From positions 1-42,016 of IMG/VR virus record IMGVR_UViG_2778261180_000002: a DNA stretch of 42,016 nucleotides; one strand, written 5' to 3'. This document shows positions 3,494-8,885 of the stretch, piece by piece (the stretch's first letter is position 1; the number at the start of each line of letters is the position of its first letter). The position numbers and the translations under genes are program-made. Source of the stretch: a virus (taxonomy: Duplodnaviria; Heunggongvirae; Uroviricota; Caudoviricetes). Below the pieces are notes generated by a model that was given only the letters and a program-made list of their open reading frames with translations, did no database searches and was not told where the DNA came from.

Positions 3494-3820
3494 ATGTTTA
3501 TTCAAGTTACACCCGGAATCACCATTGATGACTTCTTCAAGAATGGCGGTACGATTGAATACGAGATAACATCTGATGAAATTTCGCCAAATAATCCAAA
3601 TTTCGAAAATTGGGACTCCATAAAAGATTCTTTATATACTGGCTTTTATTTCCCTGTTTCTGACGCAATAACTCAGGGAGCTGTCGAGGCTACTCAAGTT
3701 ATCAACTATGCTGATGCCTGGACCAAACTGATTACGCGCGTTGAACGTCTTGGGGGTGAGGTTATTTATAAGAAATTAAATTCTGGAAAATTCTCTGCAA
3801 CTTTTAAGCTGAACATTTAA
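3494..3820 (+). CDS. hypothetical protein, AT-rich antisense moron
   Basis: 108-aa ORF, ATG 3494 with AAGGA about 10 nt upstream. Opposite orientation to the surrounding minus-strand operon. Visibly lower GC than flanks. No recognisable motifs. Confidence 0.5.
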   Translation: MFIQVTPGITIDDFFKNGGTIEYEITSDEISPNNPNFENWDSIKDSLYTGFYFPVSDAITQGAVEATQVINYADAWTKLITRVERLGGEVIYKKLNSGKFSATFKLNI

Positions 3821-4085
3821 TAATTTCCTCCAGATTTTTGCTATCCAGCACCACCACGGTAAAGCCCAGCTCGCGCAGCCGCTTGTGCTCGCGCAACTGG
3901 TCGGCGCGTGGTGCTTTGCCGGGTGCTTTGCATTCAACGAAAACAAGACGGCCGCCGGGTAGCAGAACAATGCGATCTGGTACCGAGCGGCGACCAGGTG
4001 ATATGAACTTAAAGGCGACCCCACCAGCCTTTTTCACTTCGTCGACGAGATGCTTCTCGATTAGGTTTTCACGTTCATAGGCCAT
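3804..4085 (-). CDS. VRR-NUC domain nuclease
   Basis: Motifs match recalled VRR-NUC pattern (LLPGGRLVFVECKAPGK). ATG 4083-4085 preferred; alternative ATG 4110-4112 would overlap the upstream gene by 38 nt. Confidence 0.65.
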   Translation of the reverse strand: MAYERENLIEKHLVDEVKKAGGVAFKFISPGRRSVPDRIVLLPGGRLVFVECKAPGKAPRADQLREHKRLRELGFTVVVLDSKNLEEIIKCSA

Positions 4086-4374
4086 CTGAATCCCACTCTT
4101 CAAAAAGCACATTCAATTCCAGTTTCTCTGCCAACGCATTTTCTGCACGTGCGCCGGCAGAGTACTCCCACTCTTTGAGCATATAAATCGTATCGGCACA
4201 GCGAAGCATTGCGAGGCAGATGTCCATGTACTGAGCCTGTGTCAAACCATCGGGTAAAGTTGCGGGGTTAAGCACAACATATCCCTTGTCCGTTAGCCTC
4301 TTTGCTGCGTAATGAAAGGCCGGGCGGTTAAATTGCTCGTAACCGCTCATCGGCCCGGCAATGTAAACGATCAT
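4075..4374 (-). CDS. DUF4406 / nucleoside 2-deoxyribosyltransferase-like protein
   Basis: 99 aa. N-terminal MIVYIAGPMSG motif typical of this fold. ATGA overlap with the upstream gene. Confidence 0.55.
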   Translation of the reverse strand: MIVYIAGPMSGYEQFNRPAFHYAAKRLTDKGYVVLNPATLPDGLTQAQYMDICLAMLRCADTIYMLKEWEYSAGARAENALAEKLELNVLFEEWDSDGL

Positions 4375-4586
4375 TCTTCGACCGCCTTACGCTTTTCACG
4401 CATATTCTGCATCAGGCAAAAATCAGATCTGCGTTCACTCCATTCCTGATTCAGTTCGTGATGTGATTCGCGGTTGGCTTTTGCCCAGACCTTCGCTGCC
4501 CGGTCATATTCGCCGGATTGTTCAAGTCGCAAAGCCTCCCTTGCAGCCCTGTAATAAAGTGGATTATCCCGGTATTTAAATGACAT
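4371..4586 (-). CDS. hypothetical small protein
   Basis: 71-aa ORF with ATG and AAGGA about 9 nt upstream; coupled to the downstream gene. Function unknown. Confidence 0.5.
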   Translation of the reverse strand: MSFKYRDNPLYYRAAREALRLEQSGEYDRAAKVWAKANRESHHELNQEWSERRSDFCLMQNMREKRKAVEE

Positions 4587-4591
4587 AGGAG

Positions 4592-6667
4592 TTAATCCTT
4601 ACGGTAGCGGTACGCCTCAAAACCGCCAGCGTTCAGTGGGATATCGGGCGCCCATTCGGGGTTAGTGGAGAGAAGCGCGGAAAGCGCTTTATCGTTGAAA
4701 TCTTCTGTGTCAGGTGATTCGGTGATCACCTCGTCGTGTACCGTCAGCACAATGCTGTAACCGGCATCTTCGATAAGCGGCATGTTTCCGGCCAGAACGT
4801 CGCGGGCGGCCGCCTGGGTGACGTTCTCCACCAGCTTTCCGCCGTAGGTTTTGAGTCGTTGCCATTTACGCGAATAAGAGTTAACACCCATGTAGGTGAT
4901 ATTCCCTTGTTCGATAACCGGAGACGGGTAGCATACAGCGCGTCCGGATGGTAGCTGTATGCGCAGCCACGCGCCATCGCGGCGGATTTTAAGATAACCG
5001 CAATACAATGTTTTTTGCGGTGTGGCGATTGCTGTGCGGACAGTGCGCTCCAGCTCGTACCAGAAATCGCAGGTCGCCGGGTGCGCCCTGCGCCAGAGAC
5101 GTTTAAGTGAGTCGCAGGCGATAAATACCCGTTCAGAAAGCCCGTAGGTTGACTTACGTTTAACCGATTCGTCGTACCAGCTTTTCGCCTCGCGGATAAC
5201 ATCGTGGGGAATGTTTGGCAGTGCGGCGTTCGCCAGCTCGTCGAGATCGAGACCGTAAACCAGAGCAAAAGTGATGAAAGCCGATACACCACCTCCATAA
5301 CCCAGACCGAGTTCCATGACTTTACCGATCTGACGCATGTGTTTATCAACATCATCTGGTGCAATATCGAAAACTTTTGCATACGCTAGTTTATATAAGT
5401 CCGGACCCGTTCCGGCGTCGTACTCTCTGAATGCATTCAGTTTCCATTCTTCTCCCGCCAGCCATGCCAACATACGGCCTTCAATGTTCGACAAGTCACT
5501 TACCACCAGTTTTTTGCCTGTTGGCGCGATAATGCAGCCACGTAACGCTGAACTGGTTAGTTCCATGATATTGTCAAACAGCAGGTCTGCACATCCGGCT
5601 TTCAGTGCTTCGATGCCTTCGTCTATTTGTTCCTGTTTTAGTGAAGGGCGGGGAAGATTCTGGGGCTGGAATAGCCGTCCGGCCCAACGACCGGTACGTG
5701 ACGCCCCGCAGAACTGTAGCGTACCGCGTAAGCGCCCGTCGTGGCTTACGCCTTTCATCAGTGCCTTGTATTTACTGGTGCTGGTAGTACTGGCTTGCAG
5801 GCGGATAGCCAGTAATTCTTTCACGGCAGATGGTAAATTGGGGTCGGCTATACGACGTTCCAGGGTGCTGCGTTGCATGTCTGGCAGCTCCACACCGTAG
5901 GATTCAACAATGTGCTTAATCAACGCGTCTCGTTGTGTGGCTGCCTGCACTTCGCCATCAGTCATTTCCTGTGTACGCTTTGCCAGGCGCTTTTGCTCCT
6001 GGTCTACCGCTTCGATCGCAGCGCGCGCGAGTTGCATGTCCATGCAGACGCCCCGGTCGTTGATCTGTTGATCACGATGCCAGAGCGCCAGCTCTGTCCC
6101 CTGATAATTCCACTTCGGCAGACGTTTATAGACTTCGCGCATTGCCTCAATATCCAGTCCGGCGTAAGCAACAAAGCGCCGCCATTCTTCCGGGTGGGTT
6201 TTGCTGGTGGCACGGCGCAGTTTGCTGTTTTTCGGGCGTGGCTTACAGAACAGCTGGATCAGCGCTTTACCGTCTTTGTTCTTCGCTTTGTCTTGCGGGA
6301 CGCCGAGTATTTCGCAGAGTTCCCCCAGAGACCCCGGGAGACCGTGCGCCAGCGCCTGCACCATTGTGTCTCGCCAGCGTTTGGCACTACCTGCAACAAC
6401 ACATTGGGGAGTGTGCAGCAATGCATGGCGCAACATGGTGCGATCGAAATGGCTGTTGTGTGCATATATTAGTACGCTCTCATCGCTGAGAGCTGTCAGT
6501 AGTCGTGTCGGCAAGTTATAGTCTGTGGTTAAATCGTGTACGCTGACGGGGTCTTCGTCGATTGCCCATGCGAATAACATGATTTCGACTCCTTCTGCAT
6601 AGACATGGGTGCCGTTTTTTATTGGGATTTCGCTGAAAGTTTCGAGGTCTAACCAAAGTTTTTGCAT
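4592..6667 (-). CDS. family A DNA polymerase (PolA/T7-like) with 3'-5' exonuclease domain
   Basis: Exo motif LWLDLETFS near N-terminus; polymerase motifs ([16 protein letters not shown]). Start taken as ATG 6665-6667; the track start at 6709 is a TTG inside a terminator hairpin and is unlikely. Confidence 0.85.
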
Positions 6668-6696
6668 CAAGTAAGGACCCGTTGGATTTAATAAAT

Positions 6697-6724
6697 AAAA
6701 AGCCGCCAAAATGGCGGCTTTTTA
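6697..6724. terminator. bidirectional rho-independent terminator-like hairpin
   Basis: AAAAA-GCCGCC-AAAAT-GGCGGC-TTTTT. A-run on one side and T-run on the other, so it is terminator-like on both strands. On the minus strand it directly follows the SIR2-like gene stop (6744) and precedes the polymerase start. Confidence 0.7.
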
Positions 6725-6743
6725 TAACCGAAGTTAAGAATGC

Positions 6744-8225
6744 TTAATATGATAAATAATCATACAAGCATAAAAGTCGCCTGTATTGGGTATCAATTTT
6801 ATGCCCTGGTTTTGTTAAATAATCTCGTAGTTGTTTCAATGAAATAGTATCATTTAGTACGCAATACATAATCGTGTTAGCAACTTTATACTCTTTCGTT
6901 TCTTTTAGTATTTCATCAATAGACACAGCCTCACTCTTACATGTTTTAATTCGAGAAAGGTTACCAATGATTTTATCTAGCTGCCGTTTTCTGTATGTCT
7001 CGGTATTTTCTAGTTCAGGGCAGATAGAACTAAAAGCGTATATTGGAAAGTGTTCGCTATTAGCTATGGTTTGCTTATTCAGTAATGCGATAAGCTGAGA
7101 GTTTGCTTCGTCAACTATTTTAAAATAGTTCTGTATCATTTCAGATTTTGTTTGATAAACATATTGTACGGTTCTTTCTGAACCAACAGCAATGACCATT
7201 TCATCATTGCGAAGTTCATCTAAATTTTCTGTAATTTTAACCTTTATCTCACCACCACTTTTGATGGTACTCCAAACTTTTTGAACCTTTCTTATGTCCA
7301 TTGCGGATACTGGCAAAACTAGTCCAGAGATGGCATCATATACAGCTTTGTAATTGTTTGTTTTTATTTTGTTTATTCTTATGATAGACATGCCTTCTAT
7401 ATCTATGTCATGCTCCGTAATTTCAGTTGACATGCTGTCTTTTTCGTATTCAACCAAAAGAAAATTATCTTTTATCCTTTTTGCAAGTTCGGTATTTAAG
7501 TCAACGTATGAGAATATGGTTTTTAATAAGTACTTAATGTTTTTATCGCTAATACTATACCCTATAAATATGATAGGGTTGTGTATGAATATTGAGAGTA
7601 ATTGAGCGCGAATTAACTCATATTTATTGTCGAAGTTTGCGTAGTCTTCACCTGTGATAATTATGTTGTTAGGATCACTAACACAGCCATGTATTTTGTA
7701 AACTGAACCGTATGGGTTACTTAAAAGAATGTTGTTACCAATCAGTGGGTTAAATTCGAAGATATTCTCTACGAGTTGGTCGTAGTTTGTTGTAATGATG
7801 GAGCCTATGTTTTTTCTTGTTTTTATTAAGCTGTTTATTTCCTCCATCATTGACTCTTTTATCTTTAGGTCTTTAAGTATTGAAGTTAAATAAATTTTGA
7901 ATCGACTTAGTTTTTTTCCTTTTTTCATGTGCTCATAGAAAACATCATTGATGTCTTTGAACTTACCGTTACGATCTTCTGCCAGCTTTTTATTAAAAAT
8001 ATCTTCAAGTTTTGTAGCTAAGATATCATATCGATAGTCGTCACCTTCTAGGCTTTCAGCTTTCAAATCGTAGTAAAACTCAGCATTACCGGTTAGTTCC
8101 ATTGCGACACTCAAAAGAAGACCATCCCAGCTAAATGAGTTTTCTAGATACCGTAGGCTAAATCCTGTTCCAATGAATAGAACAGGGTGGTTTTTATAGT
8201 GATTTACAAACTCTTGGATTTCCAT
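6744..8225 (-). CDS. SIR2-like (SIR2_2 / ThsA-type) domain protein with unassigned C-terminal domain; candidate defence moron
   Basis: ORF open from GTG 8246; ATG 8225 (MEIQEF...) likely the real start. N-terminal half carries SIR2_2-type motifs VLFIGTGFS, IITTNYDQL, KIHGCVS...IITGEDY. C-terminal ~250 aa has no recognisable domain. Markedly AT-rich versus flanks; own downstream terminator. Confidence 0.65.
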   Translation of the reverse strand: MEIQEFVNHYKNHPVLFIGTGFSLRYLENSFSWDGLLLSVAMELTGNAEFYYDLKAESLEGDDYRYDILATKLEDIFNKKLAEDRNGKFKDINDVFYEHMKKGKKLSRFKIYLTSILKDLKIKESMMEEINSLIKTRKNIGSIITTNYDQLVENIFEFNPLIGNNILLSNPYGSVYKIHGCVSDPNNIIITGEDYANFDNKYELIRAQLLSIFIHNPIIFIGYSISDKNIKYLLKTIFSYVDLNTELAKRIKDNFLLVEYEKDSMSTEITEHDIDIEGMSIIRINKIKTNNYKAVYDAISGLVLPVSAMDIRKVQKVWSTIKSGGEIKVKITENLDELRNDEMVIAVGSERTVQYVYQTKSEMIQNYFKIVDEANSQLIALLNKQTIANSEHFPIYAFSSICPELENTETYRKRQLDKIIGNLSRIKTCKSEAVSIDEILKETKEYKVANTIMYCVLNDTISLKQLRDYLTKPGHKIDTQYRRLLCLYDYLSY

Positions 8226-8336
8226 ACCGATTCTCAAAGTTGACACGTAATACCTCTATAAAAACAAATAGCCGTAAAAATTCCAATAGCTTTTTGGATC
8301 TCGCCCGGCGTGTAACCGGGCGTCTATGAAGAAGGG

Positions 8337-8885
8337 TTAAATCAGTGCTTCAGCATCAGCACCTTCGCTGATATCGTCGAAATCGTCAGCGCTTGCCACT
8401 CCGCCGCCAGCGAATGCATCGCCGTCTCGCAGGAACTGGACTCCGCCGAGTGAGGCATTAATGCGTTTACCGAAATTATTGTCCTGTGCCCAGATATCGA
8501 TAACGGCGTTTACATAGCACCCTGCATAGGGACGTCCGTCAGCCTGAATTAGTGGCGAACGATCGCGATCAAGAACAGCTGGGCGCGCTTTGTTAGCAGC
8601 GTTCAGGAAGAAATTGCCGGGAAAGCCTTCATACTCTGCTTTTTCATCACCATCATGCAGGCACAGATTGAGTTTTTTCTCCAGCTGGTTATAAATGGAC
8701 TCCCACTTCTCTCCCCATTTTTCCTTCGCTACCTGCTTCATAGCTTTACGGATTTCTTCCAGTTGTGGGTGTTTGGGAGACATTAAAAATACTGCGGAGA
8801 AACGCGGATCGCCTTCGCCGTTTACAGTTTTAGCTTCAAACAGAGACGGGAAGGCCAGACGAACATTGTTCAGCTTCAGTTTCAT
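8337..8885 (-). CDS. putative phage ssDNA-binding protein (DUF2815-like)
   Basis: 182 aa beginning MKLKLNNVRLAF, as I recall for DUF2815 phage proteins. Acidic C-terminal tail (DDFDDISEGADAEALI) like SSB C-termini. Adjacent to the nuclease gene. Confidence 0.5.
   Translation of the reverse strand: MKLKLNNVRLAFPSLFEAKTVNGEGDPRFSAVFLMSPKHPQLEEIRKAMKQVAKEKWGEKWESIYNQLEKKLNLCLHDGDEKAEYEGFPGNFFLNAANKARPAVLDRDRSPLIQADGRPYAGCYVNAVIDIWAQDNNFGKRINASLGGVQFLRDGDAFAGGGVASADDFDDISEGADAEALI

Follow-up and report, generated by a model that had tools for sequence, protein, structure and literature searches.

NAD+ depletion by SIR2 proteins is a well-established theme, and several described systems are close to the gene analyzed here. 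Thoeris ThsA (Bacillus cereus, PDB 6lhx; SeThsA, PDB 7uxt) combines a SIR2 domain with SLOG and has a ThsB/TIR partner. Kongming KomC (PDB 8zsf, 9v0g), a SIR2 NADase, is a bare SIR2 domain of 264 aa that depends on KomB and on a dITP signal, which KomA and a phage kinase help to make. DSR1 and DSR2 (~1,000-1,250 aa) are single polypeptides carrying an N-terminal SIR2 NADase and long helical-repeat sensors. SIR2-STAND Avs5 and human FAM118B are also close. The family PDC-S25 is one of 145 candidates proposed on computational grounds only; the seeds of the PDC models were genes lying within BREX, DISARM or type I RM systems (Payne et al., bioRxiv 10.1101/2024.01.29.577857). Our literature searches for functional studies of PDC-S25, of single-gene SIR2 prophage defence or of PF13289 found none, PDC-S25 being merely listed. 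A single-gene SIR2 from a P4 hotspot (pFR88, from E. coli M605) was cloned with its native promoter and tested on eight coliphages; it is reported under the "additional tested systems", outside the validated set (Rousset et al. 2022, PMC9122126).

The window analyzed here is a stretch of 42,016 nucleotides from a virus of the Caudoviricetes (IMG/VR record IMGVR_UViG_2778261180_000002). An earlier note on this DNA, made from the letters alone, had pointed to a SIR2-like gene, and the ORF list, the Pfam SIR2_2 profile and the PADLOC model PDLC04968 (PDC-S25) all identify it as a SIR2-family ORF of 500 aa plus stop on the minus strand (6744-8246). Two starts, 8225 and 8246, had been offered. We retain the GTG at 8246 and discard 8225, because a Shine-Dalgarno-like AGAGG read in the sequence (8253-8257, minus strand) lies 6 nt upstream of this GTG and because the resulting N-terminus, MSTLRIGM, is conserved in homologues whose start codon is ATG. 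The four motifs previously noticed are all present, VLFIGTGFS at residues 22-30, TTNYDQL at 152-158, KIHGCVS at 184-190 and IITGEDY at 196-202, and the profile search that the note had proposed (PF13289) established the SIR2_2 identity (E = 1.9e-22; 80.3 bits for a cut-off of 24.5). Residues 1-305 (7332-8246, minus strand) form a predicted NADase domain of the ThsA/KomC-like immune SIR2 type (SIRim), with an inserted helical stretch at roughly residues 40-145. The predicted catalytic residues are Asn154 (TTNYD; codon 7785-7787, minus strand) and His186 (KIHGC; codon 7689-7691, minus strand), which a PDB sequence search aligned with N112 and H152 of B. cereus ThsA. Both are invariant, together with G26, G28, S30 and D156, among 44 homologues with identities down to 55%, and this conservation of the catalytic residues extends across phyla. 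In KomC, the substitution H146A, equivalent of His186, abolishes defence (bioRxiv 10.1101/2024.12.20.629578). The predicted structure of the protein contains the SIR2 Rossmann fold, and its closest folds are KomC, ThsA, Avs5 and FAM118B, all of them NADases; the catalytic loop (residues 166-188) has a pLDDT <50 in this model. Homologues of ~500 aa number more than 1,700. The 500-aa protein is probably an enzyme of the NAD-destroying "immune sirtuin" type (PF13289, SIRim class), its NADase activity being predicted from these likenesses.

Among the known systems, the PADLOC check proposed in the earlier note gave as best match the candidate family PDC-S25 and no characterized complete system. 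The match to PDLC04968 covers the full length (E = 5.1e-158, 525 bits, residues 4-500 on profile positions 4-514 of 517), and a second model, PDLC04967, matches with E = 4.5e-56. Judged by these profiles, the gene is a member of an already catalogued family and is flagged by standard tools: it has the same single-gene organization and SIR2_2 domain as PDC-S25, from which no sequence-level difference separates it, the family itself being a computational candidate. The proposed likeness to ThsA and to DSR proteins exists and is restricted to the SIR2 domain, as are all PDB sequence matches. The protein is indeed much shorter than DSR1/DSR2, with which it would share the architecture of a single polypeptide joining an N-terminal SIR2 to a C-terminal sensor, if the sensor role proposed here is right. 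The PADLOC Dsr1 match (E = 3e-5) involves only the SIR2 domain, the NCBIfam model NF041818 (Dsr1) scores 11 bits for a cut-off of 1,400, and the NCBIfam search gave no meaningful match. PADLOC matches to SIR2 and Aga_SIR2 are marginal (E = 1e-4 to 2e-2), and no HerA (SIR2-HerA, Nezha) or short Argonaute (SIR2-APAZ/pAgo, SPARSA) is adjacent, the neighbours encoding an Enc34-type SSB and a family A polymerase. Unlike ThsA, the protein has an all-helical C-terminus devoid of SLOG or Macro and of any fold match, and unlike SIR2-STAND Avs5 it has no STAND NTPase domain. Compared to KomC, it adds a C-terminal half of 195 residues; neither a KomA adenosine deaminase nor a HAM1-like KomB was found among the early-region ORFs scanned, and neither is conserved beside homologues. 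Like the window gene, the pFR88 SIR2 is a single gene in a hotspot of a mobile element. It shows 33% identity over residues 20-308, matches PDC-S25 profile positions 10-342 (E = 4e-85) and diverges past about residue 345 (399 residues compared). A SIR2 module shared up to about profile position 342 and followed by different sequences is the pattern that would be expected for a swappable sensor. The Sir2 homologue of Vassallo et al. 2022 was also considered; no link to the window gene was found, and the latter matched no PD-T4, PD-lambda or PD-T7 PADLOC model.

The earlier note had regarded about 250 C-terminal residues as unrecognizable. The lack of a recognizable domain was borne out by Pfam and by the fold comparison that it had suggested, but the extent has to be reduced to about 160-195 aa, since the SIR2 module runs to about residue 305-340. 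Residues 306-500 gave no match in Pfam, in the PDB or among viral folds (BFVD, none at E ≤ 0.001). SLOG, Macro and STALD were not found in this all-helical region by Pfam or fold comparison, and the six-helix death fold (bDLD, Kaur et al. 2021) was not observed at the C-terminus. The region is confined to the SIR2-fused architecture, with 91 representatives in a set of 1.84 billion protein clusters, and comprises two parts: (i) residues 306-410 (7017-7331, minus strand), a family-specific region that is conserved like the SIR2 core (column entropy of 0.97 vs 1.01), is 90% identical to the lambdoid and P2 alleles and is poorly modelled at residues 313-363 (pLDDT <50), and (ii) residues 411-500 (6747-7016, minus strand), an all-helical tip whose 90 residues diverge two to three times faster than the remaining protein and which is presumed to be the specificity or sensor part. 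As the C-terminal region is devoid of a detectable relative of known function, its presumed role as a sensor is drawn from analogy and from evolutionary rate. Two other sets of sequences matching this region were examined and rejected. Stand-alone C-terminal proteins of ~135 aa, which start at a conserved internal Met, could have represented decoys, an isoform from an internal start or part of a split system; judged by their contexts, they come from copies of the full-length gene that are frameshifted, truncated or disrupted by IS elements. The giant repeat proteins P0178 and P0199, which match 45 residues of the tip, are T9SS/Ig-repeat adhesins retrieved through a summed compositional artefact.

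The description of the gene as an AT-rich moron holds. vB_EcoM-611R5 and the IAI1 prophage are homologous to the window up to 6649 and again from 8303, which delimits a swapped cargo cassette of 1,653 bp (6650-8302; GC 0.33). The ORF has a GC content of 0.33 and a GC3 of 0.32; the corresponding values are 0.53 and 0.57 in the polymerase gene, and 0.49 and 0.48 in the SSB gene. The upstream backbone gene encodes the Enc34-type ssDNA-binding protein (DUF2815; 8337-8885, minus strand; PF10991, E = 2.4e-44) and the downstream one the family A DNA polymerase (Pfam DNA_pol_A; 4592-6667, minus strand). The polymerase probably starts at the ATG at 6667 and not at the TTG at 6709, which overlaps a terminator; the RefSeq start in the identical ECONIH2 prophage is equivalent to 6667. 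This bidirectional intrinsic terminator (6697-6724) is internal to the cassette, where it separates the SIR2 stop codon from the start of the polymerase gene. As previously proposed, it is symmetric and strong, with a stem of 13-14 bp flanked by an A-run and a T-run (dG -20.1 kcal/mol on one strand and -21.4 kcal/mol on the other; z -4.9 and -5.4, respectively; none of 200 shuffles folds as well). The GC hairpin at the other junction (8302-8322) also exists (8 bp, dG -16.1, z -3.5, 15 nt past the SSB stop codon). However, it does not bracket the insert as a part of it but belongs to the phage backbone, since sibling homology restarts at 8303 and since siblings have a near-identical hairpin, including IAI1, whose cargo differs. 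It has no T-run and therefore is not a canonical terminator.

The slot located between the SSB and polymerase genes is a new cargo hotspot in E. coli prophages of a widespread family. In sibling prophages it is occupied by at least five other cargoes, among which a 209-aa protein of unknown function, a BRO-N protein, Nmad5 with an unknown protein, and Ant with unknown proteins. The 209-aa cargo was found in 67 of the 159 E. coli genomes with this backbone and the SIR2 cargo in five, whose SIR2 ORFs are 99.6-99.8% identical; the ORF is intact in the window.

Alleles of the gene are also found in very different contexts: (i) between gpQ and gpA of a P2-like prophage (83% identity), (ii) in a lambdoid early-left operon (86%), and (iii) in the same SSB/polymerase slot of a diverged Klebsiella prophage lineage (71%). 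The gpA-gpQ locus of P2 was shown to be a defence hotspot, whose 30 most abundant systems include SIR2 cassettes (Rousset et al. 2022, PMC9122126). Of the more distant homologues, that of Streptococcus phage Javan227 belongs to the lysogeny module and that of Bacillus phBC6A51 is a neighbour of the lysis genes. Outside phages, the gene is found solo among housekeeping genes (Methylobacter, Aeromonas) or in islands with RM or RT genes. No conserved neighbour was detected in the Klebsiella, Firmicute, Methylobacter, Salmonella and Aeromonas contexts. The neighbours being wholly different over 11 loci from six genera and five phage types, the gene stands alone. In agreement with the earlier note, no TIR (including ThsB), HerA or Argonaute partner was found in the window, nor in the unrelated genomic contexts examined; for TIR, the search of the window combined Pfam and PADLOC on the early genes with tblastn.

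The explanation that we consider rather probable is that this moron of a temperate E. coli phage, carried in the SSB/polymerase hotspot, is a single-protein abortive-infection system, namely an immune-sirtuin NADase (PF13289) with a fused C-terminal sensor. The gene would thus probably protect its host from other phages. The SIR2_2 profile, the cassette and the solo status of the gene all support the proposal of the earlier note, a single-gene NAD-depleting defence or a sensor fused to SIR2, defence itself being what we infer from them. In an uninfected lysogen, the SIR2 enzyme would be held inactive. Upon infection by a competing phage, the C-terminal half (306-500) would sense a phage component, the last 90 residues setting the specificity. 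Sensing would release or assemble the N-terminal SIR2, probably by oligomerization as in ThsA, KomC, Avs5 and FAM118B, and the SIR2 domain would then hydrolyse NAD+ via Asn154 and His186, so that the infection aborts. A more detailed version, which we put forward tentatively and hold to be somewhat doubtful, is that residues 306-500 are a previously undescribed phage-sensing module in which residues 306-410 couple to SIR2 and gate it and the hypervariable 90-residue helical tip directly recognizes a phage protein, activation occurring by SIR2 filament assembly as in ThsA, KomC and Avs5. The alleles of PolA-type, P2-like and lambdoid phages would then have distinct exclusion specificities and be weapons in prophage competition. 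Were the defence reading confirmed, PDC-S25 would be promoted from a candidate in a database to a validated defence, a compact NADase of one protein whose sensor domain resembles none of SLOG, Macro, STAND and the DSR repeats. The material for a test is at hand: a natural allelic series with a hypervariable tip in three types of E. coli phages, a natural control provided by prophages with this backbone and different cargo, and a defined pair of catalytic residues. The practical value would be moderate.

A rival reading is that the gene instead serves the lytic programme of its own phage, as an NAD+-dependent enzyme (ADP-ribosyltransferase or deacylase) that targets replication proteins of the host or the phage, as a manipulator of the NAD pool blunting host NAD-dependent immunity, or as a lysis-lysogeny modulator. 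The gene lies in the early replication operon and in the same orientation, with a good ribosome-binding site. A consensus scan from the junction hairpin to the start codon (8247-8302) revealed no convincing promoter of its own, and read-through from the SSB gene is plausible because the upstream hairpin has no T-run. Given this lack of a convincing promoter and the co-orientation with the early operon, production of the SIR2 protein may be confined to lytic growth, and its expression in lysogens, which the defence reading supposes, is itself conjectural. Furthermore, the DNA identity of the Klebsiella allele (73.5%) is similar to that of the backbone (78.6%), which suggests a long residence in this slot. 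However, carriage by just five of the ~159 E. coli prophages with this backbone and the acceptance of unrelated cargo by the slot indicate that the gene is dispensable for replication. Close alleles also occur away from replication loci in P2-like and lambdoid phages, as well as in non-phage contexts, and the characterized members of this SIR2 clade found here are all defence or immune NADases. We therefore consider a role in the lytic programme unlikely.

It seems less probable still that the gene is a selfish or decaying passenger, i.e. a toxic NADase persisting by horizontal transfer among temperate phages without current benefit, or one already shut down, as H-NS could do with such AT-rich DNA. 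Its GC content stays at 30-34% whatever the host, including cases in which the flanks are as high as 58%, and the sister gene of pFR88 lies outside the validated set. Many copies are broken by IS elements (including an IS1 insertion), frameshifts or truncations, although such frequent breakage also fits a costly or toxic gene. By contrast, the intact ORF and the near identity of the five E. coli copies argue against decay, as does strong purifying selection (pN of 0.09-0.19 vs a saturated pS) together with the invariance of the catalytic residues across phyla. Since synonymous sites are saturated, selection is reported as pN/pS and regional contrasts in place of a whole-gene dN/dS. The gene also recurs at loci experimentally shown to hold defence genes.

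On the other side of the polymerase gene, sibling prophages carry a TIR gene that matches PF10137, the CAP12/Pycsar effector type (E = 2.9e-31), and PDC-S35 (E = 7e-109). Two Thoeris-like readings were considered. One, in which the SIR2 protein is an orphan effector activated by a small nucleotide signal from a TIR or other cyclase encoded elsewhere, for example by this TIR gene, is very improbable; the other, a Thoeris system split between the SIR2 gene and the sibling TIR, was rejected. The TIR is a separate single-gene candidate and no ThsB, both genes assort independently (TIR without SIR2 in IAI1 and vB_EcoM-611R5, SIR2 without TIR in the window), TIR homologues are absent from the 10 other SIR2-homologue loci examined, and the all-helical C-terminus has none of the SLOG, Macro or STALD domains. 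Besides the slot described here, two further variable slots in these prophages hold other candidates, such as the PDC-S35 TIR.

The window is an E. coli prophage that carries an integrase gene (470-1873), genes for an SNF2 helicase, VRR-NUC, DUF4406, a family A DNA polymerase, an Enc34-type SSB (DUF2815), a DUF2800 nuclease, a cI-like repressor, a VapE primase and antiterminator Q, and then structural genes. The 500-aa minus-strand ORF described by the earlier note is real (6744-8246) and contains each of the four SIR2 motifs quoted there. Its start is likely the GTG at 8246, since AGAGG lies 6 nt upstream and the N-terminus MSTLRIGM is kept in homologues starting with ATG. The Pfam search confirmed its SIR2_2-type identity (PF13289, E 1.9e-22, 80 bits for a cut-off of 24.5), NCBIfam includes no model for it, and PADLOC-DB returned a near end-to-end match to PDC-S25 (PDLC04968, E 5.1e-158, residues 4-500) together with weaker matches to ThsA, Dsr1, SIR2-HerA and Ago-SIR2 confined to the SIR2 domain. 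Based on this full-length profile match, the gene can be assigned to PDC-S25 and to the immune SIR2 (PF13289) class. PDC-S25, listed among 145 candidates, has candidate status only (bioRxiv 10.1101/2024.01.29.577857); our literature search on PDC-S25, single-gene SIR2 prophage defence and PF13289 found no functional study. Since the gene is already picked up by standard tools and RefSeq already has identical proteins labelled 'SIR2 family protein', it belongs to an already catalogued kind and not to a new type of system.

Homologues of the PDC-S25 type form more than 1,700 clusters (90% identity) in Enterobacterales, Aeromonas, Vibrionaceae, Methylobacter and Firmicutes, with lengths tightly kept at about 493-515 aa. 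The active site is intact: GxGxS (G26, G28, S30), N154, D156 and H186 are invariant among 44 aligned members (identity down to 55%), and a profile search of PDB pairs N154 and H186 with the catalytic residues N112 and H152 in ThsA of Bacillus cereus. The closest fold relatives (KomC, ThsA, Avs5 and FAM118B) are all immune NADases, several of which are switched on by filament formation (PMC11897194, PMC12700824, bioRxiv 10.64898/2026.03.01.708072).

The alignments with ThsA stop near residue 305 and, as the earlier note had suspected, the C-terminal part has no recognisable domain: Pfam matches nothing in residues 306-500. Modelled on its own, this part is a confident all-helical domain over residues 365-500 (pLDDT >90), whereas residues 313-363 are modelled with pLDDT <50 though strongly conserved. 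Searching 1.84 billion cluster representatives with residues 306-500 (phmmer) retrieved 91 proteins only, and in every full-length match, of ~500-540 aa, the region spans about 300-500; therefore, it exists only in this architecture. The last 90 residues (411-500, the tip) evolve fast: (i) column entropy reaches 2.03, compared to 1.01 for residues 1-305 and 0.97 for residues 306-410, (ii) non-synonymous divergence between the window and three other alleles is 2-3 times higher there, and (iii) a Klebsiella allele is 44% identical in the tip compared to 77-79% elsewhere. Synonymous sites are saturated, so selection on the gene overall is strongly purifying. This architecture-specific half is the uncharacterised part of the protein and is worth experiment.

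Phage vB_EcoM-611R5 and the prophage of E. coli IAI1 have a backbone 92-98% identical to the window but carry, between polymerase and SSB genes, a 209-aa protein of unknown function on the strand opposite to that of the SIR2 gene. Homology ends at 6649 and restarts at 8303, which delimits a cassette at 6650-8302. The backbone junction is present in 159 of 5,426 complete E. coli genomes, 67 of which carry the 209-aa cargo and five the SIR2 cassette (99.6-99.8% identity, one split by IS1). Other cargoes of this slot are a BRO-N protein, Nmad5 with an unknown, and Ant with unknowns. The slot is thus a cargo hotspot, and this survey bears out the 'moron' reading, as the cassette is swapped for unrelated cargo among siblings. 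As had been noticed, the gene is also AT-rich: its GC is 0.33 (GC3 0.32), compared to 0.53 in the polymerase gene and 0.49 in the SSB gene. The whole gene family shares this low GC wherever it occurs, with values of 0.30-0.345 in all settings compared, even with flanks at 0.585. The IS1-split copy, otherwise 99.8% identical, is that of E. coli strain 23CRST009 (NZ_AP045766.1 1200892-1203469); broken copies (frameshifted, IS-flanked or truncated) are also common in metagenomes and occur in a Bacillus subtilis genome.

Related alleles occupy other phage loci. The Klebsiella allele (71% identity) lies in the same SSB/polymerase slot of a diverged and very widespread prophage remnant; one with 86% identity lies in a lambdoid early-left operon, with RecT on one side and Dam/xis/int on the other. 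In a P2-like prophage, another (83% identity) lies between portal gpQ and gpA, a locus experimentally shown to be a defence hotspot, where SIR2 cassettes are among the 30 most abundant systems (Rousset et al. 2022, PMC9122126). Distant near-full-length homologues (27-31% identity) are found between repressor and integrase in Streptococcus phage Javan227 and adjoining the lysis cassette in Bacillus phBC6A51. Outside phages, the gene stands solo amid housekeeping genes in Methylobacter and Aeromonas, or in islands with RT/ATPase, M78-peptidase or EcoRII RM genes. A Firmicute homologue (L008, 1-4126) adjoins a 993-aa reverse-transcriptase protein and an HATPase_c_4 protein, with recombinase fragments and a KilA-N gene around, a setting that resembles a DRT-like defence neighbourhood. 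In a Salmonella integrative island, a 408-aa protein without Pfam or PADLOC match is encoded 30 nt downstream of the homologue on the same strand (L015, 7527-8753); it is absent from all other contexts examined and could be a lineage-specific partner.

Across these phage and non-phage settings, no conserved neighbour of the gene was found. Its solo status in the window agrees with what had been proposed: neither HerA nor Argonaute accompanies it, and TIR is absent, DUF4406 filling the corresponding slot. In the ECONIH2 prophage, a TIR-domain gene is encoded 2 kb away from the same SIR2 cassette, across the polymerase gene. A split Thoeris was rejected, this TIR being a CAP12/Pycsar-type effector (PF10137) and itself a single-gene candidate (PDC-S35). 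The TIR gene is present without SIR2 in IAI1 and 611R5 and absent from the window and 10 other loci with SIR2 homologues; the co-occurrence is incidental, reflecting two independent cargo slots.

We consider it most likely, with fair probability, that the protein is a prophage-borne, single-protein abortive-infection system, which would be expressed in lysogens. Its C-terminal half would hold the SIR2 domain inactive and sense a component of an infecting phage, the variable tip determining specificity; activation, probably by oligomerisation, would free Asn154/His186 to hydrolyse NAD+, which would starve the infection. DSR1 and DSR2 also combine effector and sensor in one chain, most likely the same working mode as here, although the protein, which the earlier note already called much shorter, has only half their length. 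Assembly-activated SIR2 domains, as in ThsA, KomC and Avs5, are most likely paralleled here too, whereas the SLOG or Macro domain and ThsB of Thoeris, the HerA and Argonaute of SIR2-HerA and SIR2-Ago systems, KomA and KomB of Kongming (among the early-region ORFs scanned) and the STAND domain of Avs5 are all missing. pFR88, a single-gene SIR2 from the P4 hotspot, has the SIR2 module in common with the protein (33% identity; match to positions 10-342 of the PDC-S25 profile) and is divergent beyond, a modular pattern that supports the sensor-plus-SIR2 reading. Its test against eight coliphages speaks against a defence role, however, as pFR88 was listed only under 'additional tested systems', not among the validated ones (PMC9122126). 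Frequent inactivated copies agree with a costly gene. A role in the lytic programme of the phage itself seems unlikely to us; it would fit the consensus scan of the 56 bp from junction hairpin to start codon, which gave no convincing promoter, so that the gene may be co-transcribed with the early replication operon.

The bidirectional intrinsic terminator announced downstream of the gene was recovered at 6697-6724 as a strong symmetric hairpin with A-run and T-run flanks. Its free energy is -20.1 kcal/mol on one strand and -21.4 kcal/mol on the other (z about -5), a stability that 200 shuffles never reached. It was not among the calls of the consensus terminator scan, probably since pairing of the A/T runs lengthens the stem. 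The upstream GC hairpin (8302-8322; 8 bp, -16.1 kcal/mol, z -3.5, without T-run) exists but does not bracket the insert: the terminator lies inside the cassette and the GC hairpin outside, siblings having it too. The polymerase ATG (6667) follows the terminator after only ~30 nt, in the same orientation, so expression of the polymerase must rely on antitermination or on a promoter that escaped recognition; the mechanical call of the polymerase ORF, which starts from a TTG at 6709 and overlaps the terminator, is probably too long. The cargo breakpoint coincides with the cargo-proximal arm of the GC hairpin, just past the SSB stop codon (about 5995-6020 in IAI1, L002). It could serve as a mark for the exchange of cassettes or promote it, or else stabilise the SSB transcript.

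Two other slots vary among siblings. The one between the polymerase gene and an ANR-type regulator (window 4075-4586; L002 2417-3178; ECONIH2, L003 5178-5939) holds the 253-aa TIR protein in siblings (PDC-S35, E 7e-109) and a 99-aa DUF4406 protein in the window. The other, between SNF2 helicase and VRR-NUC (window 3494-3820, plus strand; L003 3856-4476; L002 891-1688), holds a 108-aa ORF without Pfam or PADLOC match in the window (local GC dip 0.39), a DUF6338 protein in ECONIH2 and the Klebsiella prophage, and a 265-aa unknown in IAI1. HNH or NUMOD4 homing-endonuclease genes, absent from the window, lie beside DUF2815/DUF2800 in the replication operon of some siblings (L021 1-87; L024 4181-4699). 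Finally, the mechanically called minus-strand ORFs of VRR-NUC (3804-4112) and DUF4406 (4075-4374) overlap by 38 nt, and VRR-NUC probably starts further downstream than called.
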